From Opitutales bacterium (lineage in GTDB: Bacteria; Verrucomicrobiota; Verrucomicrobiia; Opitutales; PNEW01), in NCBI GenBank assembly GCA_965219535.1, contig CBDCNV010000001.1, positions 1,380,001-1,412,000 of the forward strand: a stretch of 32,000 nucleotides of DNA, in the 5' to 3' direction. Below, one piece after another: positions 11,321-32,000 of the stretch. Below the pieces are notes generated by a model, which ran no database searches, was not told where the DNA came from, and saw nothing but the letters and a program-made list of their open reading frames with translations. Positions within the stretch are counted from its first letter, which is position 1, and every line of letters starts with the position of its first letter. Position numbers and translations under genes: made by a program.

Positions 11321-14032
11321 TTATGCCTCAAATTCTATACGCACTTCACTTAATAGGGGTGATCCACAGCCATAAAGAGAGATAAGCTCTGCCCGGTATT
11401 GCAACCATTGAGCTTGCGAGGGAACACCAAGTATTTCTGAGCCAGACTCTTCGTAGTAGGAACCATCGCCTTCTGGTCCCTGCCATTCGGCCTTTTCGAG
11501 TTCCTGTTCATCTTTTCCCCAACGCAGTTGGAACTGTATGGCAGTAGTGGTGACGATCTCGGCTTCCCAATAAATCCGTAACGGTGTTTGTTTATTTAAT
11601 TCAAAAGATGGTGAGATATAACTTTCGTAGGGTTCACGATTGTAGGCATTGCCATGATCACGGGTAGAAGTTTCATGGGGACCCATCCCGGGGAAGCGGG
11701 TTACACGATCCGTTGAAAAACCGTCAGGGCCGTTCCAATAGATTACGGAATCGACTTGATGACCGAGGTTGTTGCGATGACAGGTAATAACGAGATCATT
11801 GTATCCGTTTCGGTTGATATCGATCATGAGCGCGGCGGTTGGTGCTTCGGCGGGGAGATTTAAGGGATTCTCGAGATCGATTGTTTTTCCATTTCCCCAG
11901 AATATTTGTGCCGGCAGCTCACGGGTAGTCGTTGATGAATAGGCAGGCACATATAAATCCAGGTTTCCGTCATTGTTCAGATCTGCTAAGGCTACACAGT
12001 GCGCACTGTAGCCCGCAGCCATCTGCTGAGAATTATCCAGACTGTAACCATCCGGGCTCCCGTATAAAATACACAGGGTTTCCGGTCGGCGAATATAATG
12101 ACCCATCATGGCGACAACAATATCCAGGTAACCGTTTTTATTAATATCTCCCACGTTCAACATTACCCCGCGAGGAGCAGGCAGCTCAATGTCCCAGGTT
12201 CTTTCAGGGGAATACCCATCGGGACCTCCGAGGTAGATCTTAAGCCATTCGTGTTTATCGACAACGATAATATCGAGATAGCCGTCATGATTGACATCTG
12301 CAAGTCGGGCCGTGCCGTAGCAATAGGTGGGGAAGTTTTCCGATCGATCCGTTGAAAACCCATCCTTGGAACCATAAAAGATAGTGGACGAAGCAGCCAT
12401 CGTCTCCGGCCGGTCGTCATAAGTTAAAGCCATGACGAGTAAGTCGAGATAACCGTCACGGTTGAGGTCGGCGACGTGGACTTCCAGATTACCTTTGAAG
12501 ATGGTTTCCAAGTCATAGTAATTATCAGCTCGCGGTCCATCCGGGCCGCCAGGAAACACGCGTAAGCCAAACCTGCTTGTGAAAACCAATTCCGGATAAC
12601 CGTCCAGATCCAGATCAGCCATGATGTAGGCATAACCACCACCCACCGGTAAATCTAATCGCTGCTCGACTGAATACTCTGCTTTCTCATTTCCGAAATA
12701 AACATAAGCGGGAAATTCGTCATAAAATTGTGAAGGTCCTCCCATCGTGCTATTGAAAATAACTTCAGGCCGTCCGTCGCCATCCAGATCGCCCGCGGTG
12801 CAGCCCATGGCTCCCGCTGTTGGCAACTCGGTGATACGCTCGGGAGAAAATCCATCCGGTCCATTCCAGAAAATCACTGATTCAGTCTCATAGGTGACAC
12901 GATTATCATATTTACTGACAATGAGGTCAGGGTGGCCGTTGCCGTCCAAGTCTTCCGCAAAAACCCAGGTGGCATAGGGCACGGGGAGTTTCGACTGCAC
13001 GGTCTGCAAATCATCGGTTTTTCGAATCTGCACCCCCTCTTCGGTTACGAGAAGCAATTCTGTTTTGCCATCCCGGTCGACATCCGCAAATGCTACATTT
13101 AAAGCCCCTTGACAGAACATCGTAGAGAATCCCTGTTCCTCAATCGTGGTATAATTTTCCGGATCGAATTTACCCTGTTCATTCCAGAAAATTTTCACTT
13201 CATCGCCTCCGCAGAATATAACTTCGTCATGGCCGTCTTCGTTTAGATCAGCCAGTAGAACGCGCAGGGCGAAATGAGTGGGAAGATGAAAAGGATTTTC
13301 GGTATCAAATCCGTCATCCGTTCCCCAATAGATGTAAGAATCGGTATCATGGATATATTCATCGCGATAATTAGCAACGACGAGATCGGGTTTTCCATTA
13401 CCATTTAGATCGGCACAGGCAACTGACACTGCCGCCATGCCCTTTAATCCGAAATGTGCAGTAGCATTCTCAAACTCGCGTGGTTTGGATTGACGATAAA
13501 CATGAATGTCTCTCAATTCACCTGCATTATGGTGATCAGCCCAGGCTGAGGGGAAGATCAGGTCGAGACGACCCTCACCCTTTAAATCAACGGCCGCTAC
13601 ATCGTACGCTCCAACCGTTGGGAATTCCACACGTTCTCCAGTCAACCCTTTGGGTCCACCCCAGTAGACATAGGATGACAACTCAGAGGTAACCCCGTTT
13701 TCCCCATTGACGACAATTAAGTCGGGGTAGCCATCACCGTCGACATCTGCCACACGGCTCATCCATCCGCTATCGTTAGGCAGAACCTGTTGCGGCCAGT
13801 CTTTACCTTCTCCTTTATCGACTTTGTATATCGTGGTTGGACCGCGCTCAACGTAGCCATGGGAATTAGGCAGGACGATATCGACGTAACCGTTATTGTT
13901 AACATCAGTGCGGTGAATCCGCTCGATGATGCCCTTGGCATTTACATAAAGATTGCTGCCACCGTCATCAAAACGTCCCTCGGAAAAAGCATCGAACCCT
14001 TTATGAACCCAAACATTATTTGCCTCACTCAT
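11321..14032 (-). CDS. FG-GAP/VCBS repeat protein (14 repeats, predicted double 7-bladed beta-propeller) with a C-terminal beta-sandwich-like domain
   Basis: Fourteen Dx[DN]x[DNE]G..[DE].. motifs (DVNNNGYVDIV, DVDGDGYPDLIV, ... DINRNGYNDLVI). There is no hydrophobic N-terminal segment (MSEANNVWVHKGFDAFSEG). Confidence 0.8.
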   Translation of the reverse strand: MSEANNVWVHKGFDAFSEGRFDDGGSNLYVNAKGIIERIHRTDVNNNGYVDIVLPNSHGYVERGPTTIYKVDKGEGKDWPQQVLPNDSGWMSRVADVDGDGYPDLIVVNGENGVTSELSSYVYWGGPKGLTGERVEFPTVGAYDVAAVDLKGEGRLDLIFPSAWADHHNAGELRDIHVYRQSKPREFENATAHFGLKGMAAVSVACADLNGNGKPDLVVANYRDEYIHDTDSYIYWGTDDGFDTENPFHLPTHFALRVLLADLNEDGHDEVIFCGGDEVKIFWNEQGKFDPENYTTIEEQGFSTMFCQGALNVAFADVDRDGKTELLLVTEEGVQIRKTDDLQTVQSKLPVPYATWVFAEDLDGNGHPDLIVSKYDNRVTYETESVIFWNGPDGFSPERITELPTAGAMGCTAGDLDGDGRPEVIFNSTMGGPSQFYDEFPAYVYFGNEKAEYSVEQRLDLPVGGGYAYIMADLDLDGYPELVFTSRFGLRVFPGGPDGPRADNYYDLETIFKGNLEVHVADLNRDGYLDLLVMALTYDDRPETMAASSTIFYGSKDGFSTDRSENFPTYCYGTARLADVNHDGYLDIIVVDKHEWLKIYLGGPDGYSPERTWDIELPAPRGVMLNVGDINKNGYLDIVVAMMGHYIRRPETLCILYGSPDGYSLDNSQQMAAGYSAHCVALADLNNDGNLDLYVPAYSSTTTRELPAQIFWGNGKTIDLENPLNLPAEAPTAALMIDINRNGYNDLVITCHRNNLGHQVDSVIYWNGPDGFSTDRVTRFPGMGPHETSTRDHGNAYNREPYESYISPSFELNKQTPLRIYWEAEIVTTTAIQFQLRWGKDEQELEKAEWQGPEGDGSYYEESGSEILGVPSQAQWLQYRAELISLYGCGSPLLSEVRIEFEA

Positions 14033-14151
14033 CGGTTGTTCCTGAAGTTGTAATAAAGTAAGAGGGGAAGCAATAATAGATGTCTTTAATAATTAGAATT
14101 GTGGATTACTTGGACTGGACATAGGGGAGAATAAAATTGTTTAAATAGAAG

Positions 14152-17516: not shown

Positions 17517-18746
17517 ATGCCCTGGTATCTTTATTTAGCGCTCAAGCAGCTTTTCCCTACTGGAAAGCGCGTGTCATTATTTTTTGTCATTGCTGTATGT
17601 GGCGTGATGCTCGGCGTAATGCTTCTCGTTATTGTGCAAAGCGTGATGGGAGGTTTCGGACGAATTTACCGAGACAAAATAATCGAAACTAACGGGCATA
17701 TACGCATCGAATCGGGTGAAGTGATGTATGATTATGAAAATATGCTGAGCTATCTTTCCGAGAGAAACGAAGTAGCTGCGGCTTCGCCCTACGCGCATGG
17801 AGTCGTAATGCTCCAACATAAGGACCGCCCAGCGTTTCCCGCCATACGCAGCATTGATGTCAATCGAGAAAATCCCGTAGTTCCGATTGCCAAATACATT
17901 ATCCTTGGAGGAGTTGACGATCTGGATGATGATTCTGTTCTTTTAAGCTCAAGCCTGGCGACATCCATTGGCGCGGCCCTCCATTCAACGGTGGAGGTTT
18001 ATACCCCGCTTATTATCGACAAGCTGACCGAAGAGGAAGTCCTTCTTCCTCGAGAATTAAAGGTCGTGGGAATTTACGAAACCGGCTGGGAGGAGTTCGA
18101 TAGTAATACAATGATAGCTACCATGCGGTTGATGCAGGAACTTTATAATTTAAGTAGCGGTGTTCATGGAATTGCCGTTCGCCTTAATCCCGGTTTTGAT
18201 GAAGAAAAAGTCGCTTCCACAATCAGGGAAGAAATATTGCCGCCTAATGAGACAATGACATGGCTAGACATGTACGCAGGTTTGCTATGGATATTAAAGC
18301 TCGAGAAAAATATGCAGTTCTTTCTTCTCCTCTTTATCGTCATTGTAGCGGCCTTCGCGATTGCCAATGCACAGCTTCTAACGGTGATCAGAAAAACCCG
18401 TGAGATCGGCTTGCTCGGAGCTCTCGGTGGACAACCGCGTCAACTTATTGCCTGCTATTGCTTCCAGGGATTATTCATCGGAGTTTTAGGGACTCTATTG
18501 GGTATTATCGTCGGTTTGATCGCACTGCATTTTCGCAATGACATCATCCATGGATTCGCGAAATTAACAAATAGTGAAGACTGGCTGATTAAGTTTTATC
18601 AGTTTGCTGAGTTGCCCGTTTATTATACGAGCAGTGATTTTATCGCTATTTCTATCAGCGCCCTCATATTAACCACCCTAGCCGGATTGCTTCCCGCATG
18701 GCACGCGGCGAGGATGAAACCTGCCGAAGCATTGCGCAATGAGTGA
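17517..18746 (+). CDS. LolC/LolE-family lipoprotein-releasing ABC transporter permease (FtsX-like)
   Basis: 409 aa with an N-terminal TM helix, a large periplasmic loop and a C-terminal FtsX-type three-TM bundle. It overlaps the ATPase gene by 8 nt. Confidence 0.85.
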   Translation: MPWYLYLALKQLFPTGKRVSLFFVIAVCGVMLGVMLLVIVQSVMGGFGRIYRDKIIETNGHIRIESGEVMYDYENMLSYLSERNEVAAASPYAHGVVMLQHKDRPAFPAIRSIDVNRENPVVPIAKYIILGGVDDLDDDSVLLSSSLATSIGAALHSTVEVYTPLIIDKLTEEEVLLPRELKVVGIYETGWEEFDSNTMIATMRLMQELYNLSSGVHGIAVRLNPGFDEEKVASTIREEILPPNETMTWLDMYAGLLWILKLEKNMQFFLLLFIVIVAAFAIANAQLLTVIRKTREIGLLGALGGQPRQLIACYCFQGLFIGVLGTLLGIIVGLIALHFRNDIIHGFAKLTNSEDWLIKFYQFAELPVYYTSSDFIAISISALILTTLAGLLPAWHAARMKPAEALRNE

Positions 18747-19425
18747 ACCTTCCACCATATTGAAAGTATCGGAGCTGACGAAATCATTTCGAAGTGGCAA
18801 CCGCTCAATTGAAGTGCTGCGCGGTATTGAAATGAGTATGCGTCAGGGAGAAAGTATCAGTATACGTGGCGATTCGGGCAGCGGGAAGACGACCTTGCTT
18901 AATATAATTGCCGGGTTGGAATATCCCGACAAAGGGAAAATCTTTTGGGGTGAAACCTTATTGAGTCAATTATCGGCTTCATCTCAGGCGAAGCAGCGAG
19001 CGGTCACGATTGGAATGGTCTATCAGGCATTTTACCTTATCCCTGAACTCGACGCATTCGAAAATGTTATGATGGCGTCGCGCATTCTCGGCCTGGCCGG
19101 TCCGAAAGAAAAATCACGTGCGTGTGAATTACTTGAGCGGGTAGGTCTGAAAGAGCGGTTGGACAGTTCTACCCTTAAACTTTCGGGTGGGGAGCGTCAG
19201 CGGGTAGCAGTAGCGCGTGCGTTAATGAATAAACCTTCACTCATTCTTGCGGATGAACCGACTGGTAACTTGGATGAAAATACAGGAAAAGAAATAATTA
19301 ATTTACTGATGGAAATATCTCGCGAGGAAGATGTCAGTCTTATACTTGTGACTCATAATCCCGATTACGCGATGCAGACACAACGTCAATTCCTTCTACA
19401 TTTTGGCGAGTTGCAAGTTCAGTGA
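18739..19425 (+). CDS. lolD: Lipoprotein-releasing system ATP-binding protein
   Basis: Walker A GDSGSGKTT, signature LSGGERQRVAVARAL, Walker B LILADEPTGNLD. Confidence 0.85.
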   Translation: MSEPSTILKVSELTKSFRSGNRSIEVLRGIEMSMRQGESISIRGDSGSGKTTLLNIIAGLEYPDKGKIFWGETLLSQLSASSQAKQRAVTIGMVYQAFYLIPELDAFENVMMASRILGLAGPKEKSRACELLERVGLKERLDSSTLKLSGGERQRVAVARALMNKPSLILADEPTGNLDENTGKEIINLLMEISREEDVSLILVTHNPDYAMQTQRQFLLHFGELQVQ

Positions 19426-19453
19426 ACGAGCACCAGTGGTTTGTTAACAGTGT

Positions 19454-19550
19454 CTCTTCGTCTTCGTCTGCCTCTTCGTCCAAGAATTAGTAATAATATC
19501 TTAAGCAATTATAGGACGAAGACGAAGAGGCAGACGAAGACGAAGATTTT
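19454..19550 (+). terminator. Long imperfect hairpin of the TCTTCGTCTGCCTC arm family followed by TTTT; candidate terminator of lolCD
   Basis: Left arm 19454-19481 and right arm 19514-19546, the latter with a 6-nt CGAAGA bulge; 32-nt AT-rich loop; T4 at 19547-19550. Confidence 0.5.
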
Positions 19551-19644
19551 ATCATTGTCTAAAGAACTTGTGGGTTAATGAAATACTGTAGTTTATTAAT
19601 TGACTGCTTGTCATGAGGCTGAATGTCCGTCTTAAATACCGACG

Positions 19645-20592
19645 ATGGGTAGTGAAAAAAAAATAAAGTGCGGAGTTGTGGGTGTGGGTTATCTGGGCCA
19701 GCATCATGCACGCATTTACCAGGCATTGCCTACTGCAGAATTAGTAGGTGTTTATGATCTGGATGAAGCGCGCGCGGAAAAAATAGCAAAAAAAAATAAA
19801 TGCCCACGCTTTCGTTCACTGGAAGAACTGGGTGAAAGTTGTGATGCTATAAGTGTGGCAGTTCCCACAGATGAACATTGTTCTGTGGCTATACCCTTAT
19901 TACAACTGGGCTGCCATCTGCTTATTGAAAAGCCGCTTTGTTCGGGAATTGAAGAGGCGGAAAGAATATTATCTGCGGCAAAAGAAGCGAACACGATTGT
20001 GCAGGTAGGTCACATTGAACACTTTAATCCAGTTATGGATTTTCTCGAAGAAGCGGTCAATGACCCTAAGTACATCACCGCGGATCGATTGGCGCCCTTT
20101 AATAAACGTGGGACCGAAGTAGGAGTTGTTCTCGATCTCATGATTCATGACATAGGGGTCATACTTGAATTGGTGAAATCACCCGTGGAGAAGGTTGAGA
20201 GCATTGGCGTTAGTGTGTTGTCTTCAACAGAAGATATAGCGAATGCAAGAATTCAGTTTAAAAATGGCTGTGTCGCAAATATCAACACGAGCCGCGTGAG
20301 TAGAAAAAAGGTGCGAGAGATACGTGTCTTTCAACCTAATGTTTATCTCTCACTCGACTTTATGAATCAGAAAGGTCACCTCTTGAGAAAAGAGGAAATG
20401 AAACTGAAAAAAGAGGCGATACCTATAGCCAAGGGTGAACCGCTAATGCTAGAACTGACCTCCTTTGTAAATTGTGTGGCGAGCTATGCGGAACCAAAAG
20501 TCGGCGCCAGTCTGGGTAAATCAGCACTTGAAATAGCTATTTTGATTACTGAGCAGATACAAGCCATGGACACCCTGGGCGAGAAACGTTAA
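19645..20592 (+). CDS. Gfo/Idh/MocA-family NAD-dependent oxidoreductase (possible GnnA-like UDP-GlcNAc 3-dehydrogenase)
   Basis: N-terminal Rossmann motif KCGVVGVGYLGQHH and EKP motif (LIEKPL). Its stop abuts the lpxB ATG (TAAATG). Confidence 0.8.
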   Translation: MGSEKKIKCGVVGVGYLGQHHARIYQALPTAELVGVYDLDEARAEKIAKKNKCPRFRSLEELGESCDAISVAVPTDEHCSVAIPLLQLGCHLLIEKPLCSGIEEAERILSAAKEANTIVQVGHIEHFNPVMDFLEEAVNDPKYITADRLAPFNKRGTEVGVVLDLMIHDIGVILELVKSPVEKVESIGVSVLSSTEDIANARIQFKNGCVANINTSRVSRKKVREIRVFQPNVYLSLDFMNQKGHLLRKEEMKLKKEAIPIAKGEPLMLELTSFVNCVASYAEPKVGASLGKSALEIAILITEQIQAMDTLGEKR

Positions 20593-21774
20593 ATGCCTGA
20601 GCAGGCCGCATTAACTTTGGGATTGCCACCGCCGGAGGGTGGTCAACCGGATCTGCTGATCATTGCCGGGGAGCACTCCGGTGATCAACACGCAGCCTTG
20701 ATCGTTGCGGATCTTAAAGCACAATTTCCTGATCTCAACATTGCCGCTCTGGGTGGCGAAAAACTGCAACAGGCAGGCGCGCAATTACTATTTGATTTTA
20801 CAGCTCACTCGGTGGTTGGATTTGTTGAAGTGGTGAAAAGCTATGCTTTTTTCAAGGAGTTTTTCGAATTAATCATTAAATGGATAAATACCTATAATCC
20901 ACGTCACCTCTGTCTCGTAGACTATCCCGGATTTAATCTGCGTTTAGCTGAACGGCTTTTCCAGAAGAGGATCAGTCGTAAGGGAGGTGGAGCAATGGGC
21001 GTTCACTACTACATAAGTCCCCAGATATGGGCTTGGAAAGCGGTGCGCCGATTTAAAATGGAACGTTGGCTCGACAGTCTTGGAGTGATTTTTCCTTTTG
21101 AAGTTGATACTTACAAGGACACTACATTACCTGTTACATTTGTCGGCCATCCTTTTGTCTCAACTGATTATCAACTCCCGGTAACCTTTCGTCCAGATGC
21201 TCCAATTTTATTGTTACCGGGGAGTAGACGCATCGCGGTATCCCGAATACTTCCATCGATGATTGGGGCTTTTAAATTAATGTTGAAGCAGCGGCCTGAC
21301 GAACGCGCGACGATTATCTACCCGGATGATAAAATACGTGGCGTTATCGATGCTATACTCGCGAAGGATAAGGAGGTATCGGGTAGAATAGATCTACAAT
21401 TGATTGGGCAATCGGTGAATGGGAAAGCAGCACTGACAAGCTCTGGTACCATTTCACTCGCTTGTGGGCTAGCGGGAATACCCGGAGCTATTGTTTACCG
21501 GGCGCATCCACTTACCTATTGGTTTGCCAGGTACCTGATACAGGTTCCGTATCTTGGTATTGCCAATCTTTTGCTTAAGAAAACTTTTTATAATGAATAT
21601 ATTCAATGGCGTGCAAAGCCATCTCTTCTGGTCAAGGAATTAGAAGGGGCGATTGATTCAAAAGAGAGAATTAGCAACGCAGAATCGGTCGCTCTCCAGT
21701 TGAGAGATATTTTAAGGAGTAAGAGCAGTATTTCTGCCGCTACCTGGTTGGCTGAACAGATTAGATCGTCTTAG
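20593..21774 (+). CDS. lpxB: Lipid-A-disaccharide synthase
   Basis: N-terminal IIAGEHSGDQHAA, DYPGFNLRLA, LLPGSR and SGTISLACGLAGIP, which are typical LpxB motifs. Confidence 0.9.
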   Translation: MPEQAALTLGLPPPEGGQPDLLIIAGEHSGDQHAALIVADLKAQFPDLNIAALGGEKLQQAGAQLLFDFTAHSVVGFVEVVKSYAFFKEFFELIIKWINTYNPRHLCLVDYPGFNLRLAERLFQKRISRKGGGAMGVHYYISPQIWAWKAVRRFKMERWLDSLGVIFPFEVDTYKDTTLPVTFVGHPFVSTDYQLPVTFRPDAPILLLPGSRRIAVSRILPSMIGAFKLMLKQRPDERATIIYPDDKIRGVIDAILAKDKEVSGRIDLQLIGQSVNGKAALTSSGTISLACGLAGIPGAIVYRAHPLTYWFARYLIQVPYLGIANLLLKKTFYNEYIQWRAKPSLLVKELEGAIDSKERISNAESVALQLRDILRSKSSISAATWLAEQIRSS

Positions 21775-22814
21775 TGAGTGATTTCGTTGTGATCGAGACC
21801 ACTCCACAATCGCGCAGCTCTCTCCTGGAGTATCTGACGACAGCGGTCAATTTCAGCGATACGCGAATTTAAATTTTCATTCGCGATTTTGGCTAGATCA
21901 TCGAGATTATAGAGGAAGACATTTGGAATATCTGATACCTGCGATGCGATATCACGCGGTACCGCCAGATCGATAAAAAACATGGGCTGATTGGGGCGCT
22001 CATGTATGGTCGCTTTAATCATCGATGAAGAAATAATAATCTCCGGTGAAGCGGTTGAGCAGATAATGATATCGAATTTAGAAAGTGCGTCAGGGAAGTC
22101 TTTAAATGCTATCGCCTGCCCCGCTATTTTTTTTGCCAGTGTTTTAGCATTATCATAAGTTCGGCTGGAAACAGAAATAGAGTGGGCACCACGACTTTTT
22201 AAAGCTTTTACAGTTTTCTCACCCACCTCGCCGGTGCCAATTACTAATATGCGGCTAGACGTGAGTTTACCGAAAATGCGCAAGGCTAAATCAACAGCCA
22301 CACTTCCTATACTTATTTGCCCTTTGCCAATCGTGGTGTTGCTTCGCACCCATTTAGTAGATTGAAAGCATTTCTGAAATACTCTGTGCAAGACTGGGCC
22401 AACTGAAGCCATTTCTGCCGCGGTTTGGTATGAACTTTTTACCTGTCCGGTAATTTCAGTTTCCCCCACCATCTGCGAGTCAATTCCTGAGCTTACTTCG
22501 AACAAATGGTTTACTACATCGAGCCCCGACTTCCAGAAACTGAACTTATGTAAGTGATCAATTTCAAAATTATGAAAATTGAAAAAATGGTCTTCAACCA
22601 CCGCTTTAATTTCAGGTTTCAATGATATCAGATAAAGTTCAATACGGTTACAGGTATTAAGAACAAGGCATTCTTCAAGTGATTCTATTTCGCGTAACCC
22701 GCTATAAAGAGAAGCGACCCTATCAGCACTGATTGCAAACTGCTCTCTGATCTCGAGCGGAGCGGTGCGGTGGGTGCTGGCGAAAAGCAAAAGTTCTTTC
22801 TGAGTTTTGCTCAT
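21771..22814 (-). CDS. hemA: Glutamyl-tRNA reductase (short, 347 aa)
   Basis: Catalytic LNTCNRIELY motif and NADPH-binding ILVIGTGEVGEK. The C-terminus is short relative to ~420-aa enterobacterial HemA. Confidence 0.9.
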   Translation of the reverse strand: MSKTQKELLLFASTHRTAPLEIREQFAISADRVASLYSGLREIESLEECLVLNTCNRIELYLISLKPEIKAVVEDHFFNFHNFEIDHLHKFSFWKSGLDVVNHLFEVSSGIDSQMVGETEITGQVKSSYQTAAEMASVGPVLHRVFQKCFQSTKWVRSNTTIGKGQISIGSVAVDLALRIFGKLTSSRILVIGTGEVGEKTVKALKSRGAHSISVSSRTYDNAKTLAKKIAGQAIAFKDFPDALSKFDIIICSTASPEIIISSSMIKATIHERPNQPMFFIDLAVPRDIASQVSDIPNVFLYNLDDLAKIANENLNSRIAEIDRCRQILQERAARLWSGLDHNEITH

Positions 22815-22819
22815 TTTAG

Positions 22820-23668
22820 TTATGGGCCCTGCTCAGAGGGTTGCTCATCAACGACTGATCGGCTCGCATCTATTGGCCAAAGGGTAAGGAGGGAGGCGGT
22901 AAAAAGGACGACACATGTCCACGAAAATTTTATGCCGATCAGATAATTTAACAGGCGCAGGATCAATACGAGGAGGTATGCCAACCAAAGTGCTAAGGCG
23001 AAGATGAGTTTGGCATTTTGTATCTGGCTGAAATCGTCGACCCATTTTACCATGCCGACGGAAATGGCGAAAGTGAACACTACCACTCCCATAAAAAGGA
23101 GACGCTTATTCATCTTATCCAATTGCAGGATAGAGGGGAGGAAGCTAACCATTCCCTTAGATCGTTTTTGCTTGAGGCCATAATTCTGGACGAGATACAT
23201 GGCCGAAGTCAGGGCAAGAGTGGCGAAAACACCGTAGCTGAAAAGAGCCATTGAAGCGTGGGTTTCTATCCAGGGATTGATCCCATAGGGTCCAGTTTCG
23301 TAAGCGCGGTCCCATTCCGGTATGAGGAGTGAAAGAATGCCCAGCCCCGCTGCCAGTCCAGCGCTGAAAAATCCAAGTAAGCTCATGCGGAAAGCCGGTC
23401 CGATAACGAGATAGAGAAGGATGGCAGTCCAGGTGATAAATTGTATGATTTCAAAGGGGTTCCCCAGTGGGCAACTGCTTGTTTTTAACCCGCGTTCGTA
23501 AAGACCCAGGGTTTGAAATAAAAAACCGACGATAACGAGAGTGAGAAGAATTAAGCGCGGGTATCGTTTTGATTGTGAGAGCGAATAAAACCCAAAAACA
23601 AAAGCAACGAGGTAGAGCAGCGCTGCGGTCCAAATAAATATCCGTTCATCTGAAATGAAACTATACAT
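22820..23668 (-). CDS. Cytochrome c assembly (CcsA/HemX-like) family integral membrane protein
   Basis: 282 aa, about 8 TM segments, immediately upstream of hemA as in hemAX arrangements. The family assignment comes from context and topology. Confidence 0.55.
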   Translation of the reverse strand: MYSFISDERIFIWTAALLYLVAFVFGFYSLSQSKRYPRLILLTLVIVGFLFQTLGLYERGLKTSSCPLGNPFEIIQFITWTAILLYLVIGPAFRMSLLGFFSAGLAAGLGILSLLIPEWDRAYETGPYGINPWIETHASMALFSYGVFATLALTSAMYLVQNYGLKQKRSKGMVSFLPSILQLDKMNKRLLFMGVVVFTFAISVGMVKWVDDFSQIQNAKLIFALALWLAYLLVLILRLLNYLIGIKFSWTCVVLFTASLLTLWPIDASRSVVDEQPSEQGP

Positions 23669-23728
23669 AATCCTGGCAATGTTCTTGTCGGTGATTAAAT
23701 CGATTGTGAATGACTGTATTAAGCAATA

Positions 23729-24748
23729 TCATTCTTTGCTCTGATTATACCAACCGTTAATTTTATTCGCTAAAAAATCAATAAATGCCGGGTAATCATT
23801 CAGACAGGGAATAATTTCTAAATCTTCACCCCCTGATTCCAGGAAAAGCTTTTTACCTTCAATCGCAATTTCTTCAAGCGTTTCCAGGCAATCGGCAACG
23901 AAAGCGGGGCATAGAATGAGGATCCTTTTTGCACCCGAATGCGCCAAATGGACAATCGTTTCATCAGTAAAAGGTTGCAACCAGGGGTCTCGACCAAGCC
24001 GCGATTGAAAAGTGAGGCAGTATTTATCTTCAGGTATGTGCGTTTTATTAACGAATGATTCTACAGTTTTAAAGCATTGATGACGATAACAGGTCGCATG
24101 TGCCGGATTACTGCGCACGCAACAATCTGGAGTACTCAAGCAGTGGGTGTTAGAGGGGTCCGCCTTACGAATATGGCGTTCAGGCAAACCGTGAAAACTG
24201 AATATAATTTTGTCGTAATCTTTTTTTAAATAAGGTTCGGCATTTTGTATGAGGGCATTGATATACTCCGGGTCACTGTAAAAGGGGGGGAGCAGGGTAG
24301 TGCGTATAGTGCCATGCTTTTCAATTTCCTCCTTCACTTTAACGGCGACAGTTTCATAGCTCGACATCGCGTATTGGGGATAGAGTGGCATCACATAGAT
24401 ATCATCCACCTTTTGCTCCACAAGCTCCGCAATGACATTGGCAATTGCAGGTCGGCCATAACGCATGGCTAAAGCAACTGGAATCTCAACTTTTTTCTTC
24501 AGAGAATCCCTTTGCTGATTACTGATAACTATAAGCGGGGACCCATCGGAGCGCCATACCTTTCGGTACGCTTTTGCTGTTCGTTGGGGTCGGAACGGGA
24601 GAATAAAGAAGTTTACGATCAATGATCGGAAAGGAGAATCAATGACGCGTGGATCAGTGAGAAACTCTTTTAGATAGCGTCTCACGTCAGCAACTTTCGT
24701 TGAATCAGGTGATCCAAGGTTAAGCAACAATGCGGCTTTTTTAGACAT
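23729..24748 (-). CDS. hemH: Ferrochelatase with an internal Cys-rich insert
   Basis: LLNLGSP, FSFHGLPERH and the C-terminal region are conserved. The insert reads CLSTPDCCVRSNPAHATCYRHQC. Confidence 0.9.
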   Translation of the reverse strand: MSKKAALLLNLGSPDSTKVADVRRYLKEFLTDPRVIDSPFRSLIVNFFILPFRPQRTAKAYRKVWRSDGSPLIVISNQQRDSLKKKVEIPVALAMRYGRPAIANVIAELVEQKVDDIYVMPLYPQYAMSSYETVAVKVKEEIEKHGTIRTTLLPPFYSDPEYINALIQNAEPYLKKDYDKIIFSFHGLPERHIRKADPSNTHCLSTPDCCVRSNPAHATCYRHQCFKTVESFVNKTHIPEDKYCLTFQSRLGRDPWLQPFTDETIVHLAHSGAKRILILCPAFVADCLETLEEIAIEGKKLFLESGGEDLEIIPCLNDYPAFIDFLANKINGWYNQSKE

Positions 24749-25099
24749 AAAAAATTAGCTATAGCTATTTTGACATAAAATCATTTCCCAACAATCTTAT
24801 AAAAAAGGGATAAAAACTATAACAGGTAAAAACTGACATTGCTCAGCATGAGAAGTCAAGATCAGCATATCCCCATCAATCAATAGTGTTAAATCTATAC
24901 GGGCACAGAAAACATTAATTCCTGTCTAATAATATTAACCCAAAGACTTGATTCAATCAGCTTTAAAAAATATGAACAATAAAAGAGGAAAAAGAATAAC
25001 TCGTTTATTGGAGGCCATTAGGCTACACTTTTCTGCTTTTATAAATACGAGAACACAAAGTTGCGAGAGGGAGACAGGTAGAATAATATTCTGTTCTTC

Positions 25100-25228
25100 A
25101 TGCGATTAAATATGCGAGGAAATTTTCATCATTGGATTGTCCCCACGGCGTTAGCTTTTTTGGGCCTATTAATAATATCCGGAATTGGGCTGCTATTATT
25201 AAATGAGAATGAAGTTGCTACCGATTAA
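25100..25228 (+). CDS. 42-codon signal-anchor ORF, in frame with the downstream S8 peptidase and cut off from it by a TAA
   Basis: MRLNMRGNFHHWIVPTALAFLGLLIISGIGLLLLNENEVATD*. TAA is at 25226-25228 and 25253-25100 = 153 nt, so the frame is the same. No stop lies between the TAA and the GTG at 25253. Confidence 0.45.
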   Translation: MRLNMRGNFHHWIVPTALAFLGLLIISGIGLLLLNENEVATD

Positions 25229-25252
25229 GCCAGCGCAGCGAACGGTGCTTTT

Positions 25253-28200
25253 GTGACCAAAGATCAGGAACCTTCAGCTATTTTAAAAAAGGACAATTTA
25301 AATAAAGATCAGATTGCCATCCGATCTGCGGTCGAAGAAAGAGAAATAATACTTGGGGTTGAGCGTCCAGATACAAAAGCGGTAAGTGAGATCTGGCCGG
25401 ACGCAGAAGTCCTTGTCGAGGAGACGTCGATCCCGGATGAGTGGGGAAATTATCGACGTGTAACACTTATCCAGCCAAGAGATTTACCTTACCCGGTACG
25501 GATAGAGAAAAAAATTACAACCGACCCCAATACGGGTGATGAAAAATTACTGAGCGAGAATGAAGTCGTGGCCGATCGTGTCATCATTAAGATTAAGCCG
25601 GGCCAAAATGAGGAAGCGATTGAGAGTATAATAGACAAAATTGGTGGAGTGCTTCACGATCCATTTCAAGGGAGTGGGTTCACAATCGTACAACTGCCGG
25701 AACTTACAGTCGAAGCAGTCCCCGAAGCGCTTCAAGCTTTATCAGGGAAAAGGGAATTTCTCGAATATGTGGAACCCGATTATATAATTCATGCGGCACT
25801 AGCACCCAATGATCCCCGTTATGTTGATGGGACACAATGGGGTTTAAATAATCTTGGACAAAATGGCGGTAGTGATGATGCGGAAATCGACGCTCCAGAA
25901 GGATGGGAAATCATTCAGGATGCGAGCAATGTGACAATTGCGGTGATTGACACAGGCACTCGCTATACGCACCAGGACCTGGCAGCTAACATGTGGGTAA
26001 ATACAGGGGAAATACCTAACGATAAAATTGATAATGATCAAAATGGGGTAATTGATGATAAGTGCGGTTTTAATAGTATCTTAAATACGGGTGACCCCAA
26101 AGATGATAACGGTCACGGAACCCTCGTCGCAGGAATAATTGGAGCGGTTGGCAATAATGGTATCGGTGTAGCTGGCATTGCCTGGAGGACTCAATTAATG
26201 GCGGTTAAATTTCTTAGCGAAGATGGAAATGGGGTGATTACGGACGCGGTTGAGTGTATCAACTATAGCCGCCTCAACGGCGCCCAGGTGATAAACGCGA
26301 GTTGGTCAGGGGGTGGTTTTTCTCAAACGTTGCTTAACGCGATCGAAGAAACACGTGAAGCAGGAATTTTATTTGTCACCGCCGCTGGCAATTTTTCCAG
26401 TGATAATGATATAGTCCCCCTTTTTCCGGCAAATTTCCTACTTGATAATATCGTAAGTGTGGCAAGTTCCACGCGGAATGACGAGATTTCACAATTTTCA
26501 AATTTTGGGGAGAGTACCGTCGATATCGTGGCTCCCGGTTCTGCTATTTTTACTACATTTAACCGAACAGACTCCGATTATGTAACGCGGAGCGGCACCT
26601 CGATGGCCACCCCTTATGTAAGCGGTGTAATTGCACTTTTAAAGGCTAGATTTCCAAATGAGAATCACGAGACCCTGATCAATCGTCTCCTGGTGGGAGG
26701 TGACAAAGTAAGTGGAACAGAGGATAAAGTAAGATCGAGTGCGAGGGTCAATTTATCTGGATCACTCAATTTGAATACGGTACCTGCGCTTCCCGATTTC
26801 ATTACACCCCTGAGAACTCAGGCCGCCAGTGAAGGTGGAAGTGTGATATTTCATGTCGAAGTGAGCGGAGATCCACCGCTGACTTATAGCTGGTCAAAAG
26901 ATGGACAACCCATCCCCGGCGCCTCGCAAAATTTCCTCCTTGTTGAGGATATAGATATCAGTAAAGAAGGGGTCTATAAGGTTAAAGTCTCGAATGATTT
27001 TGGTTTGAATAGCAGTAGCGCCAGCCTCTTCGTCGCGACGGTGAGGCCCGAGTTGGGCGCCGCACTCGAGGCCCCGGATTTCAACTGGAGAAGTGTTGGT
27101 TTCGCTCTCTGGTTTGGCCAGACGGATGTTACACGGGATGGCGTTGACGCCGCGGCGAGCGGTCTTATTTCAGATGGGCTAATCTCCCAGTTTGAGACTA
27201 CGGTTCAAGGTCCGGGCTCCGGTTCATTCAGGTGGCAGTCTTCGTCTGAAGTTTTATTCGATTTTCTTCGCTTCGCGATTGATGGTGAACAACAGATATC
27301 CATTTCAGGCAAAAATGATTGGAGCAAAGAGACATTTTCTATTCCCGAAGGCGAGCATGTCGTATCTTGGGCGTATACGAAGGATGAAAGTTTATCCGTC
27401 GGTGATGACCGTGGTTACGTGGACAACTTTATCTTTAGTTCTGAAAATATCATAACTCCGCAAATCGTTTCAGAAACGACAAACAAAGTGGCAAACCCCG
27501 GAGCAAATGTCGAATTTGTGATCATTGCAACAGGCACAGATCCTTTAAAATACCAATGGAAAAAAGATGGTGTAGTCTTAGCGGGAGAGACTAAGCCATT
27601 GTTAAATCTAACTGCTGTTAAAACAGATGATAACGGTACCTATCGTGTTGAAGTCTCAAACTCGAGTGGAACAGCGATCAGTAATACCTTCAATCTCAGC
27701 GTTAAGGGTTCGAATAATGCATTGTCTTTAGCATTGGATAATAATGAATGGCCCTGGAGGCATAGTAACGACACAAAATGGTTTAACCAGGACACAATTG
27801 CTCTTGATGGTTTTGATGCACTGCAGAGTGGCAGTATATCAAATAATGAATCATCATCATTCGAGACTACGGTTATCGGGCCCGGTATTATTTCTTTTTA
27901 CTGGAAAGTATCTTCTGAGGACGGACATGATGTGCTTACTTTTGCTCTTAATGATCAAGCTCAGGAATCTATTTCTGGTGAAGTTGAATGGCAGGAAGGT
28001 GCTTTCGCGGTACCGGCGGGGGAAAATATCCTGCGCTGGGTATACTCAAAAAATGAAAGTCTCTCTTTGAGAGCCGATTCCGGCTGGATCGACAAGTTTA
28101 CATTTAAATCTTTAGATGCTGACTTCCCATTTATTATACGACAGCCAAAAAATTCTCTCGTCTTTCTGGGGGACAGTTTAAGCTTAAACGCAGATGTCAC

Positions 28201-28426
28201 GGGGACGCAGCCGTTAACTTATCAATGGCGAAAAAATGAGACTGCCCTCAATGGCGAAATTAGTAATTCCCTTGAGTTAACTGCAAATAGCAAATCTGTC
28301 GGGGGGAACTATTCCGTTGAAGTGACTAACAGTAAAGGAAGTGTGATTAGTGACCCGGCTTCTCTCGTAGTCTTTAATGAAGGTGATCCTTTGGGGCAGG
28401 CGCTCGAGCTGTCTGAATCAACATGA
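25253..28426 (+). CDS. Subtilisin-like S8 serine peptidase with three I-set Ig-like domains and repeated Trp-rich modules
   Basis: Catalytic triad contexts AVIDTGT (Asp codon 25949), DDNGHGTLVAG (His codon 26114) and SGTSMATPYVSG (Ser codon 26600). I9-like propeptide. Ig-like PLTYSWSKDG / PLKYQWKKDG / PLTYQWRKNE. No signal peptide after the GTG start. Confidence 0.85.
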   Translation: MTKDQEPSAILKKDNLNKDQIAIRSAVEEREIILGVERPDTKAVSEIWPDAEVLVEETSIPDEWGNYRRVTLIQPRDLPYPVRIEKKITTDPNTGDEKLLSENEVVADRVIIKIKPGQNEEAIESIIDKIGGVLHDPFQGSGFTIVQLPELTVEAVPEALQALSGKREFLEYVEPDYIIHAALAPNDPRYVDGTQWGLNNLGQNGGSDDAEIDAPEGWEIIQDASNVTIAVIDTGTRYTHQDLAANMWVNTGEIPNDKIDNDQNGVIDDKCGFNSILNTGDPKDDNGHGTLVAGIIGAVGNNGIGVAGIAWRTQLMAVKFLSEDGNGVITDAVECINYSRLNGAQVINASWSGGGFSQTLLNAIEETREAGILFVTAAGNFSSDNDIVPLFPANFLLDNIVSVASSTRNDEISQFSNFGESTVDIVAPGSAIFTTFNRTDSDYVTRSGTSMATPYVSGVIALLKARFPNENHETLINRLLVGGDKVSGTEDKVRSSARVNLSGSLNLNTVPALPDFITPLRTQAASEGGSVIFHVEVSGDPPLTYSWSKDGQPIPGASQNFLLVEDIDISKEGVYKVKVSNDFGLNSSSASLFVATVRPELGAALEAPDFNWRSVGFALWFGQTDVTRDGVDAAASGLISDGLISQFETTVQGPGSGSFRWQSSSEVLFDFLRFAIDGEQQISISGKNDWSKETFSIPEGEHVVSWAYTKDESLSVGDDRGYVDNFIFSSENIITPQIVSETTNKVANPGANVEFVIIATGTDPLKYQWKKDGVVLAGETKPLLNLTAVKTDDNGTYRVEVSNSSGTAISNTFNLSVKGSNNALSLALDNNEWPWRHSNDTKWFNQDTIALDGFDALQSGSISNNESSSFETTVIGPGIISFYWKVSSEDGHDVLTFALNDQAQESISGEVEWQEGAFAVPAGENILRWVYSKNESLSLRADSGWIDKFTFKSLDADFPFIIRQPKNSLVFLGDSLSLNADVTGTQPLTYQWRKNETALNGEISNSLELTANSKSVGGNYSVEVTNSKGSVISDPASLVVFNEGDPLGQALELSEST

Positions 28427-28630
28427 CAGACAGATGGCAGTAGCGACTGGTTTCCCCAAGCGGTTGTTAATCGCGACGGTGAAGACGCCCTGCAAAGCGG
28501 AGCAATTGAGAATGGTCAGTTCTCCGAGTTTAGTATCAACTTAGAGGGTTCACGCACCTTATCCTTCTGGTGGAAAGTCTCATCTGAGCTAAATCGCGAT
28601 TATCTACGCTTTTATATCGATAACACGAAA

Positions 28631-29608
28631 ATGGCGGAAATATCGGGATTACTAGATTGGCAGCAGCGACATATCATCCTTCCCGAAGGACGGCATAACC
28701 TTCGATGGATCTATGAAAAAGATTTCGACCGTTCGTTAGGTCAGGATACGGCATGGGTAGATAATCTTTCCTTTAAACCTGCATCGGACGCAATTAGCCC
28801 CGCGCTCGATACGGAGGGACTTATATGGAATACAGGTGGAGATGCCTCCTGGTATCCACAGGAGATAACTACATTTGACCGGGAAGAAGCATTACAAAGT
28901 GGTAATATCACTCATGGTGGGGAAACCTGGGTGGAGACAACAGTCATTGGACCGGGCATCTTATCGTTTTGGTGGCGCGTTCATTTAGAAGAAGAGCATG
29001 ATACGCTGGGGTTTTATTTTGATGATGAGCTGGTCGAGGAAATTTCGGATAACTCGGGCTGGCAGCGAAAGAGTTACAGTTTAGGAGGCGAGGCACATAC
29101 CTTGCGCTGGCGGTATGCTAAGAACGCTACACGCAATATCGGGCAGGATGCTGCATGGCTGGATCAGGTATTTTATCTCGGTTCGGTTGCTCCAATCGAC
29201 AATTGGCAGGTGCGGCACTTCTCCACAGCTGAGATCAATGATCCGCTTATAAGCGGTAATCTTGCTGATGCCGATGATGATGGCGTGGCCAATATTCTTG
29301 AGTACGCTTTGGGACAAGATCCACGATTTGCCGATCGTTTGGGACTTCCAACGGTCGCGACAATAGAAATTAATAACACAGAGTACCTGACCCTGACATA
29401 CCGACGTAATAAATTAGCAACTGATATAGATTATCGCGTTGAAGTATCCAATGATTTAAAAGAATGGGACTCATCAACGGGATCTACGGTCGAAATCGGT
29501 GTGACAAATCTCGATGCGGAGATCGAACTTGTTGTCGTTCGCGACATCCTTCCTATTTCCAGTAGCCCGAAACGATTTATGCGACTGCGTGTAGAGGAGA
29601 AAGACTGA
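28631..29608 (+). CDS. C-terminal continuation of the S8/Ig protein (modules 3-4 plus DxDxDG / C-terminal domain)
   Basis: Same frame as 25253..28426, and that frame is open from 28427, directly after the TGA. It contains the rest of module 3, module 4, and ADADDDGVANILEYALGQDP...RFMRLRV. Confidence 0.6.
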   Translation: MAEISGLLDWQQRHIILPEGRHNLRWIYEKDFDRSLGQDTAWVDNLSFKPASDAISPALDTEGLIWNTGGDASWYPQEITTFDREEALQSGNITHGGETWVETTVIGPGILSFWWRVHLEEEHDTLGFYFDDELVEEISDNSGWQRKSYSLGGEAHTLRWRYAKNATRNIGQDAAWLDQVFYLGSVAPIDNWQVRHFSTAEINDPLISGNLADADDDGVANILEYALGQDPRFADRLGLPTVATIEINNTEYLTLTYRRNKLATDIDYRVEVSNDLKEWDSSTGSTVEIGVTNLDAEIELVVVRDILPISSSPKRFMRLRVEEKD

Positions 29609-29618
29609 CGTTTGTAAA

Positions 29619-29797
29619 TCTTCGTCTGCGTCGATTCTGATATTTACAACAATATTAAGGTGGAACGCGCTGTCCCTAGCGCGTTTGAATATGTCGTTAT
29701 TGAAGAAGCGTGCTAGGGATCAGCCGTCGCCAAGGCTATGTCGGACAGGCAGCCCGCTCCACCTTAAGTCGGGAGGGACGAAGATGCAGACGAGGAT
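29619..29797. repeat. Composite nested palindromic element (TCTTCGTCTGC arms plus the 113-bp TIR element)
   Basis: Left core TCTTCGTCTGCGTC at 29619-29632, beginning 10 nt after the stop, the same spacing as at 6748. Right core GATGCAGACGAGGA at 29783-29796. Confidence 0.75.
29655..29767. repeat. ~113-bp TIR element, copy 2 (flip form relative to 6798-6909)
   Basis: TTAAGGTGGAACGCGCTG...TTGAAGAAGCGTGCTAGGGA-TCAGCCGTCGCCAAGGCTATGTCGGACAGG-CAGCCCGCTCCACCTTAA. Confidence 0.8.
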
Positions 29798-29823
29798 AAT
29801 TTTCTAATAACACACTTTAATTC

Positions 29824-30261
29824 TCATTGTTCTTGCTTACCTTTTGGGGCTACGTGCTCTTTGTATAAGTGAGGACCAGAGGAGACCCTCCACCTCGTGT
29901 TATAAAATACGCCAACGTCGACATCGGTTAATACTGGGTAGGGGGTTTCTTTTATCTCATTTAAATTTATAGATATTATATTTCTCCCTTGATGTAAGAG
30001 GCTAGGGGCATCAATTTTCATCTGCCAGAATTCCTGTGCTGGCGGAGTAATAGCGGATTCCGCGATAATCGAAACTGAGCTTTCGATCCGGCGATCACTA
30101 ATCACCGTCAGATGATCCCTTGCGGGACCATAAAATATTTGTTTTCCGTTTATCGCGACCCTTAGCTTTTGATCAGGATTGAGCTTTCGAAATCCCAGTC
30201 TTAATCCAGTGTACCGCAAATCCATCGCGGTTGATGGGTTATTAAAATCTTCTCCGATCAA
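29824..30261 (-). CDS. Probable C-terminal beta-sandwich portion of the upstream glycosidase-like gene (TTG start in track)
   Basis: In frame with 30307..31584. The 15 codons between them (LSVELNGNKTYDFKL) are open, so only the TAA at 30309-30307 separates the two ORFs. Confidence 0.45.
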   Translation of the reverse strand: MIGEDFNNPSTAMDLRYTGLRLGFRKLNPDQKLRVAINGKQIFYGPARDHLTVISDRRIESSVSIIAESAITPPAQEFWQMKIDAPSLLHQGRNIISINLNEIKETPYPVLTDVDVGVFYNTRWRVSSGPHLYKEHVAPKGKQEQ

Positions 30262-30306
30262 TAATTTAAAATCATAGGTTTTATTGCCATTAAGCTCAAC
30301 CGAGAG

Positions 30307-31584
30307 TTACCTGTCATATATTTCAGGTTCTTCTCTATCCTGATAGTAGCCGTGAGTTATTCTATAAACTTTAGACTGCCGGTTGAGACTGGCGGGACTG
30401 GAGAAGTAAGGCAGCAACTGGGGATCACCCGTGCCCATATTGAAGGTATACATACCATCAACACCCAGAGCCCAATAGTTGGCTGCCGCCGCACGTATCA
30501 ATTCCGGTGTTATTCTATTCGCGGGTTTATCCACGTAGGTGTCGATAGATGGACTTTCGCTAAATGGATATGCCCACCCCATTGTTTGGTTCAGGCTAGG
30601 GTAAACAGCGCATTTAGCTGCATGGGCCAGGCTTATCATTTCTTCTATCTGCATATCAAACGAAGTTCCCATTCTCGGTGCGGGAACGAGAACATCAACG
30701 AGGCGTTTTTCCATCCAGCTCTTAATGTCGAGACCGATCCAATTACATCGCTCTAACGAGCTGGCGATTCGAGTCATGAGATAGTATTTTCTTCCATTTT
30801 TATCACCTACGCTGTCTAGACGCTTACGTACTTTTTCGACGAGGTCGGTGATAAGATGCCCTTTATGAAAGCCTTCATTAAAGGGGAAGTAATAAAATGA
30901 GCGTGTGAAATCCAGTTCTATGCCGTCCATGATGTCCTGGTAATGATCAATAATTTCATAAATCACCTCCAACCGATGTTGGCGTACTTCCTCATGACTA
31001 TAATCGAGAAGATTGGCATAGTTAGGATTGCTCTTTAAAGGAGACTCACCACTCGCTCCAATCCGAAGATGAGGATTATGCACCCAGAACTTACCGGTTG
31101 TTGGATTATTAAGTGGATCAATATTAACAAAATGACCGTCATTCATGCGATAACTGGGAAAGAAATAAAGTCCAAGCTCTTTGGCATGCTCACCAGCCAC
31201 GCGCGGACCGTCGAATCCAGCTTTAGTCAGTGCCTTTCCCGAACGTACGCGAAAGTTGAAGAAGGGATGGCTGTCCATGGATGTCTCTCTCCACCCCCAG
31301 TGCACGCCTGTCTTTGAAGGGTACTGGAGAAGATCGGATGTCGAACACACGCAATAGGCAAGTGTTCTCAAAGGCTTTCCCGCAGCGGTATCAATATGGT
31401 ATTCAATTCTATGCGCCGCCGTTTTAGGATCTAAACTGTTAAATGTGATCCCCCCATCAATATTAAAAATTACCCCGAAGTCTGGTAACGATTTCTCCGA
31501 AGATTGACCAGGTGTCACAGCCGTGGAATGGCTGTGTGCCATACTTAATAAAAATATGATGATGCATTTATTTATAACATTCAT
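30307..31584 (-). CDS. Secreted TIM-barrel glycoside-hydrolase-like protein (GHL10/DUF-type), function unknown
   Basis: Signal peptide MNVINKCIIIFLLSMAHSHS. The pattern LLDYSHEEVRQHRLEVIYEIIDHYQDIMDGIELDFTRSF resembles glycosyl-hydrolase-like TIM barrels. This is recognition only. Confidence 0.5.
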   Translation of the reverse strand: MNVINKCIIIFLLSMAHSHSTAVTPGQSSEKSLPDFGVIFNIDGGITFNSLDPKTAAHRIEYHIDTAAGKPLRTLAYCVCSTSDLLQYPSKTGVHWGWRETSMDSHPFFNFRVRSGKALTKAGFDGPRVAGEHAKELGLYFFPSYRMNDGHFVNIDPLNNPTTGKFWVHNPHLRIGASGESPLKSNPNYANLLDYSHEEVRQHRLEVIYEIIDHYQDIMDGIELDFTRSFYYFPFNEGFHKGHLITDLVEKVRKRLDSVGDKNGRKYYLMTRIASSLERCNWIGLDIKSWMEKRLVDVLVPAPRMGTSFDMQIEEMISLAHAAKCAVYPSLNQTMGWAYPFSESPSIDTYVDKPANRITPELIRAAAANYWALGVDGMYTFNMGTGDPQLLPYFSSPASLNRQSKVYRITHGYYQDREEPEIYDR

Positions 31585-31776
31585 GGAGAGGGTTGGTGTT
31601 TATAGGTAATTAAATATTATTGAATTCATCCTTTAAATTTTTCCACAAAATATGATAGCTAAAACATCTCTGTGGCCTTAAAGAAGCAGGGTGAATTTGT
31701 ATGCTCATTTAAATGAATTAATAGTGACGTTTAACGTGTAATTTGATTACCGATGATAATTAAGAAACCTTATGTT

Positions 31777-32000
31777 CTATAGATCCTGATTAATCTTTTC
31801 CGCGGTACTGAGACCGGAAAGCATGCATTTCCCAACCGCTACACCTGTGCGGTAACTTCCCGAAATATAAAGATTGGGGTTATCGTATTCGATCTTCTCA
31901 ATTGTTTCCAAATACCGGCTATGGCCGATGTTAAATTGAGGTATAGCATTAAGCCAATGAAACTGTTTAAGGTAGACGGGATCCCCTTTTATCTCAAGCA
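31777..32000 (-). CDS. hemY: HemY-type protoporphyrinogen/coproporphyrinogen oxidase, C-terminal 73 codons (N-terminus off window)
   Basis: My minus-strand translation is LEIKGDPVYLKQFHWLNAIPQFNIGHSRYLETIEKIEYDNPNLYISGSYRTGVAVGKCMLSGLSTAEKINQDL*. The W..AIPQ[YF]..GH and G..Y.GV.....I..G motifs are typical of the PPOX C-terminus. Confidence 0.75.
   Translation of the reverse strand, partial: LEIKGDPVYLKQFHWLNAIPQFNIGHSRYLETIEKIEYDNPNLYISGSYRTGVAVGKCMLSGLSTAEKINQDL

Follow-up and report, generated by a model that had tools for sequence, protein, structure and literature searches.

An in-frame TGA at a conserved tryptophan codon as a probable young nonsense mutation in a recurrently inactivated protease gene of an Opitutales population

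The in-frame TGA at positions 28424-28426 of the 32,000-nucleotide stretch of Opitutales DNA analysed here (the window) is very probably a recent, strain-specific nonsense mutation in a dispensable and recurrently inactivated accessory gene, that is, an ordinary young pseudogene. When intact, the gene would encode a cell-surface protease of the subtilisin family, anchored in the membrane, which also carries three Ig domains, four jelly-roll modules of a CBM/MAM-like kind and a C-terminal domain. In the window's strain, the protease would be cut off from its signal anchor by a TAA at codon 43, and modules 3 and 4 together with the C-terminal domain would be lost through the TGA at codon 1109. 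Both this gene and its neighbour appear to be dispensable accessory genes set among clustered genes for heme biosynthesis in a marine species of Opitutales, a marine origin being suggested solely by the TARA_098_MES names of members of the protein cluster described below. The population would hold many independent loss-of-function alleles beside a few intact ones.

The TGA closes a GTG-initiated ORF (25253..28426; 1057 aa), beyond which the same frame is open for 393 codons and ends at TGA 29606-29608. Four modules in this frame start at 27062, 27731, 28400 and 28802 and share the motif AL(E/D)-x5-W-x7-W(F/Y)xQ. The Trp codons of modules 1, 2 and 4 are TGG (27086, 27755 and 28826), and the equivalent codon of module 3, aligned without a gap, is the TGA. 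The local context is ...GAATCAACA-TGA-CAGACAGAT... (ACA-TGA-CAG), and a translated long form would be expected to contain the peptide ...LELSESTWQTDGSS... across codon 1109. An earlier note on this DNA had pointed out the gap-free alignment with the Trp of a four-fold repeat and the 393 further open codons to 29608, and both agree with the module coordinates, the TGG of the orthologs and the translation through the TGA. Its description of the Trp as invariant holds within this protein and fails beyond it, where the sister species (locus L022) has Leu (CTA) and distant homologs have V or L. The 1057-aa ORF likewise stands as called, but the in-frame TAA at 25226-25228 and the real start at ATG 25100 had been missed.

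The ancestral gene comprises 1502 codons from ATG 25100, and the window allele stops early at two of them, codon 43 and codon 1109. In relatives the gene starts at the ATG matching window position 25100, 51 codons 5' of GTG 25253, and in L001, L021, L105, L023, L024 and P0133 the segment 25100..25225 runs on into the remainder of the gene without interruption. An N-terminal hydrophobic anchor (MRLNMRGNFHHWIVPTALAFL..GLLLL) is encoded in this segment at 25133-25201 and, to judge from its hydrophobicity, would serve as a TM/signal anchor; the TAA at codon 43 splits it from the protease part of the gene. The gene model is as follows.

25100 to 25225, plus strand: codons 1 to 42 of the ancestral gene (MRLNMRGNFHHWIVPTALAFLGLLIISGIGLLLL...), in frame with the large ORF
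25226 to 25228, plus strand: premature stop TAA at codon 43; GAA (Glu) in relatives, ACA in L023
25253 to 28423, plus strand: 1057-aa ORF as called, with pro-region, Peptidase_S8, three Ig domains, modules 1 and 2 and eight codons of module 3
28424 to 28426, plus strand: premature stop TGA at codon 1109; TGG (Trp) in relatives' alleles
28427 to 29608, plus strand: 393 further open codons and the natural TGA stop, with modules 3 and 4 and the C-terminal domain

Upstream, a divergent intergenic region of 350 bp (24749-25099) lies between the ferrochelatase and protease genes and is AT-rich, with a GC of about 0.40. A promoter and terminator scan gave no signal exceeding that of shuffled sequences, and the same applies to the consensus promoter matches in 24749-25099.

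The protein matches Peptidase_S8 (PF00082) with E=1.4e-50 and 172.7 bits against a Pfam cut-off of 21.8, and its Asp, His and Ser catalytic motifs are intact in the window allele. The best NCBIfam matches (mycosin and PrtP) fall far under their cut-offs. Pfam matches and scans for catalytic and repeat motifs place the domains as listed here.

25943 to 25960, plus strand: catalytic Asp motif (VIDTGT), motif scan
26114 to 26134, plus strand: catalytic His motif (HGTLVAG), motif scan
26594 to 26614, plus strand: catalytic Ser motif (GTSMATP), motif scan
26792 to 27043, plus strand: Ig1 (I-set/Ig_3, Pfam)
27062 to 27439, plus strand: module 1 (repeat motif)
27452 to 27706, plus strand: Ig2 (I-set/Ig_3, Pfam)
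27731 to 28108, plus strand: module 2 (repeat motif)
28124 to 28378, plus strand: Ig3 (I-set/Ig_3, Pfam)
28400 to 28777, plus strand: module 3 (repeat motif)
28802 to 29179, plus strand: module 4 (repeat motif)
29180 to 29605, plus strand: C-terminal domain with DADDDG

When the 393-aa continuation was searched, neither the module of about 126 aa nor the C-terminal DADDDG domain had a match in Pfam or NCBIfam. An AlphaFold2 model of the 393 residues, built with 70 homologs, has a mean pLDDT of 92.4 and consists of two jelly-roll beta-sandwiches and a smaller C-terminal beta domain. Foldseek searches against the PDB (E about 1e-9 to 1e-7) returned the reelin subrepeat, CBM22, CBM51, Cry1A protoxin domains, VesC and the meprin MAM region. 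The repeats are probably binding modules of the CBM/MAM type. The jelly-roll module is an undescribed CBM/MAM-like domain family with a high-confidence fold and with neither a Pfam nor an NCBIfam model; as a by-product of this work, it was found to be common to more than 400 database proteins, mostly on Verrucomicrobiota-type contigs. Its pattern in homologs P0003-P0120 reads W..W(F/Y)xQ ... SFWWKVSSE ... W.Y.KD ... G.D.AW(V/L)D.

To place the stop among relatives, syntenic loci were recovered. L001, the Opitutales MAG chromosome OY829953.1, has 97.3% nucleotide identity and is collinear with window positions 21731-32000. Further loci came from ENA, Logan and JGI assemblies: over the gene, L021, L105 and L106 show nucleotide differences of 3.0-3.2% from the window, L024 and L023 are 93% and 88% identical to it, and the sister species L022 has 66% amino-acid identity. 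At 90% identity, the 1057-aa product falls in a cluster of 23 proteins whose lengths are very unequal and which were mapped on a 1502-residue reference. Codon 1109 is TGG in L001, L021, L023, L024, L105, L106, P0122, P0132 and P0133 (9 of 9; 88-98% nucleotide identity), and among the alleles compared only the window's strain has TGA. Since the other alleles at 88-98% identity read TGG, the TGA is private to the window's strain and derived by a G>A transition; the alignment of the TGA with a Trp position is not a matter of chance, because TGG stands at this codon in each ortholog examined. The earlier note had proposed a TGG-to-TGA change and a comparison of orthologs at this codon as a way to check it; that comparison has now been run, and the TGG of same-species and near-species alleles bears out the change as a single transition. 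Intact orthologs of 1502 codons (L023, L024 and L105/P0133) are among those that read TGG where the window has TGA. The window has a GC content of 45% and the relatives' genomes measure 4.5-5 Mb; GC is uniform across the locus (0.44-0.46) and gives no pointer to recent horizontal transfer.

It is very improbable that the two stops are errors of sequencing or assembly standing in for a true TGG and a true GAA at codon 43. Such an error could be suspected as the window contig has a coverage of about 5x according to its name (ctg830227_5x_l), and as frameshifts in relatives lie in homopolymers (A6>A7 and G5>G4), which are typical sites of long-read error. However, the window's lesions are substitutions and not homopolymer indels, and the sequence assembled independently by Logan from run ERR13605531 matches the window at 100% over 23843-29677, both stops included. 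Moreover, the window's stops are confined to two accessory genes and leave 14 flanking genes without a lesion, a TAG at codon 897 recurs in several assemblies of relatives, and contigs at 21x and 35x carry lesions too.

Lesions of this kind are widespread in the population, and alleles of the protease gene other than that of the window have the following states.

P0133/L105 (17x, 3.3-Mb contig), P0132, L023 and L024: intact, 1502 or 1498 codons
L001: one A gained in an A6 run (A6>A7) at codon 1017
L106 (circular 5.05-Mb contig, 21x): one G lost from a G5 run (G5>G4) at codon 973
L021, P0130 and P0131: TAG at codon 897, from CAG
L021: second lesion, TGA at codon 1369, from TGG
P0134: frameshift after codon 702
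P0137: repeat-to-repeat deletion (module 1 to module 3) with a frameshift
P0122: in-frame deletion of 222 aa, residues 600-821 (window about 26897-27562), by which module 1 is lost and Ig1 is fused to Ig2
L022 (sister species, 35x): TGA three codons 3' of the Trp position, which is Leu (CTA) there, and a frameshift near codon 1463
P0138 (same species as L022): C-terminus in frame, free of the frameshift near codon 1463

At least six independent events have thus occurred in a clade whose members are 97-98% identical over the gene, against one intact allele. L021 and L106 are only 0.22% divergent in the protease gene, yet their disabling lesions are wholly different. Inactivation would accordingly be both very recent and recurrent, because these two near-identical alleles were broken in different ways. 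The deletions in P0122 and P0137 have evidently been driven by recombination between the internal repeats. The TGA of L022 was considered as a sign of a conserved stop site and set aside, as it arose from a different codon (GAT or another) and the Trp position itself is Leu in that species.

The distribution of lesions along the gene bears on whether loss of the C-terminus alone is tolerated or even selected, such that a protease lacking its distal modules would be neutral or advantageous and its product functional. The lesions may preferentially truncate the distal modules: 7 of about 10 lie in the last 40% of the gene (codons 897, 973, 1017, 1109, about 1112, 1369 and about 1463), with a binomial p of about 0.06 for a cut-off that was chosen post hoc. 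The catalytic motifs are intact in the window, and the TGA of L022 is only three codons away. Against this, the codon-43 TAA removes the signal anchor in the window, other lesions lie at codons 648 and 702, the positional bias is weak, and among about 10 lesions some pair would fall within three codons of each other by chance in about 20% of cases by our estimate. A functional truncated product is therefore decidedly unlikely, and the young pseudogene remains the preferred reading, with both stops contributing to a presumed loss of function.

The gene next to the protease has suffered in a similar way. It has no Pfam or NCBIfam match, and its position is as follows.

29824 to 31584, minus strand: secreted protein of 586 codons with a signal peptide, start at ATG 31584; TAA at codon 426 (30307-30309), which is CAA in L001

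This gene has been broken independently by the TAA at codon 426 in the window, by a TGA at codon 176 in L106 (from GGA), by a 1-nt deletion in L105 and by three indels in L021; L024 lacks it, and L001, L023 and L022 have it intact. A further TAA at 31600-31602 was rejected as a second lesion, as most strains have it and as it lies 5' of ATG 31584, the likely start, with which the signal peptide begins. L001 has CAA at 31600-31602 and hence an ORF that is 15 codons longer (601 aa), whose start is for these reasons probably not the real one of the gene.

By contrast with these two genes, the 14 flanking housekeeping genes (4,024 codons), including lpxB, a hemA-like GlutR gene, ccsA, ferrochelatase, a protoporphyrinogen oxidase-like gene, URO-D, coproporphyrinogen oxidase and recR, have no stops or frameshifts in 6 of 6 loci, and the protease gene is broken in four of the same six. 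In the window, the two accessory genes carry three stops in about 2,090 codons (Fisher test, p about 0.04 on our recalculation). A scan of the window for long open segments parted by a single stop found, normal junctions aside, only this site and the adjacent minus-strand gene. Both genes would seem dispensable. The interval between the heme-biosynthesis genes has the look of a variable hotspot. In L022, the regions 11473-14076 and 17617-20475, just 3' of the protease gene, contain IS1595-family transposase genes, an HTH_Tnp_1 gene and a Fic gene.

Substitution patterns help to date the stops. In the comparison of the window with L001, the part of the gene 5' of the TGA has a dN/dS of 0.14 and the part 3' of it one of 0.13, the latter from 21 synonymous and 10 nonsynonymous changes. 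Three flanking genes gave 0.11, 0.14 and 0.46 in the same comparison, and the protease values resemble the first two. The private branch of the window has 38 synonymous, 20 missense and 2 nonsense changes (omega about 0.2) and thus no overall relaxation, where a neutral model expects about 2.5-3.2 missense and about 0.14-0.18 nonsense changes per synonymous change. Because the counts are far below the neutral missense expectation, most of this branch would have evolved under constraint and the stops would be recent. Two nonsense changes with so few missense changes are mildly above a simple neutral model (roughly p~0.1 per genome by our estimate). The branches that lead to L023 and L024, both of them intact, have 346 synonymous changes and no nonsense change. 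The private changes of L021 and L106 taken together (5 missense, 2 nonsense and 1 frameshift vs 3 synonymous) are near neutral, although the counts are small, and they appear to be a signature of recent relaxation. The frame downstream of the TGA would then still be open and look selected because there has been too little time for further decay. Its conserved appearance is no evidence of translation, as recency explains the low dN/dS equally well.

The identity of the mutated codon is not a special signal either. A single transition can turn TGG into either of two stop codons, and there are 40 Trp codons in the gene. If transitions are given a three-fold weight, Trp accounts for 28-32% of nonsense opportunities, Gln for 18-20% and Glu for 13-14%. 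A stop at a conserved Trp is therefore to be expected, since Trp codons make up about 30% of the opportunities. The nonsense events seen in the two genes affect W twice, Q twice (the neighbour included), E once and G once, so that five of six fall in the three likeliest classes.

These observations also bear on the more elaborate proposal of the earlier note, in which the UGA, followed by C, is read as Trp by near-cognate tRNA-Trp in a functional or programmed manner and the gene yields a short and a long form. Some features are in line with it: the TGA replaces exactly a Trp codon, 393 codons are open beyond it, and the downstream dN/dS is 0.13. A change of UGG to UGA with presumed read-through has also been documented in Providencia siddallii symbionts (PMC10540940). 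However, the TGA is unconserved, with TGG in nine other alleles, and the Providencia genes are essential whereas the protease gene is not. The window's remaining in-frame stops are TAA codons at Glu and Gln positions, so the pattern is neither UGA-specific nor Trp-specific, and the frameshifts and deletions of sister strains are beyond the rescue of read-through. Even perfect read-through of the TGA would restore no secreted or anchored protease, because the protease has by then been parted from its signal anchor by the TAA at codon 43. When folded, the 80 nt that begin with the TGA (28424-28503) did no better than shuffled sequences (z=+0.59), so that no downstream RNA structure was found there. 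The +4 base after the TGA is C, and UGA followed by C is reportedly the weakest termination signal in E. coli. Some basal misreading of UGA by tRNA-Trp does occur in nature, and a leaky UGA-C may allow traces of read-through, but there is no sign that it is used. Functional read-through is thus extremely improbable. The suggested system of short and long forms is not supported, given the TAA at codon 43 and the unrelated lesions of sister strains, and neither is the decoding of this UGA as Trp, given its lack of conservation, the role of TGA as a normal terminator and the TAA identity of the window's other stops.

An early reassignment of UGA to Trp, as in code 4, or an insertion of selenocysteine would also produce a single UGG-to-UGA change at a conserved Trp, but the probability of either is negligible. 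TGA ends 7 of the 18 ORFs of at least 200 codons (TAA 9, TAG 2), no other gene in the window has an in-frame TGA, and the GC content and the size of the relatives' genomes given above are unlike those of reduced code-4 genomes. As for selenocysteine, no SECIS-like hairpin was found and the orthologs have Trp rather than Cys or Sec. Across the whole window, no Rfam family and no tRNA gene were detected, and the 32,000 nt contain no prfB.

The young pseudogene thus being the preferred reading, it could still be asked why so many alleles are broken. The unusual density of independent knock-outs, by nonsense mutation, frameshift or repeat-mediated deletion, suggests recurrent selection for loss of the surface protease and its neighbour in this marine and apparently free-living population rather than mere drift, with intact alleles persisting, although on balance this is unlikely. 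If it were true, a 'cheater' or Black-Queen loss of a costly public-good exoprotease would be possible, as would evasion of a phage or grazer by which the exposed array of Ig and jelly-roll domains is recognised. The present sample is insufficient to establish that loss or truncation is favoured, and the probability is small. The value of the site as a recoding candidate is likewise small; it serves rather as an example that an in-frame TGA at a conserved Trp does not in itself show read-through. More useful outcomes are a corrected gene model of 1502 codons from ATG 25100 with two premature stops, and a documented set of loss-of-function alleles of a surface protease that could be used for population genomics of accessory-gene loss.

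Several known systems invite comparison. The protein resembles multidomain secreted subtilases in having an S8 catalytic domain with D/H/S motifs followed by C-terminal beta-sandwich extensions, and the C-terminal region of VesC, a serine protease of Vibrio cholerae (6bqm), structurally matches its modules. It differs from the named subtilase families in that the mycosin and PrtP models stay under their cut-offs and that its module and DADDDG domain are in no model. 'Ca. Providencia siddallii' shares with the window a UGG-to-UGA change at a conserved Trp with the frame continuing beyond it. In these leech symbionts, 9-125 genes have such changes, many of them essential, and some sites are kept between species; their genomes are reduced, with about 22-24% GC, and represent an intermediate stage of the reassignment from code 11 to code 4 (PMC10540940). 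The window, by contrast, has a single non-essential gene, an unconserved site, TAA stops alongside and a GC content of 45%. The closest likeness is to young pseudogenes and to loss-of-function alleles, by nonsense or frameshift, that segregate in accessory genes of bacteria, with a derived stop, multiple hits, strain-specific lesions, intact neighbours and an open downstream frame. There is no essential difference from these alleles, the density of independent alleles found here being noteworthy but not unprecedented.
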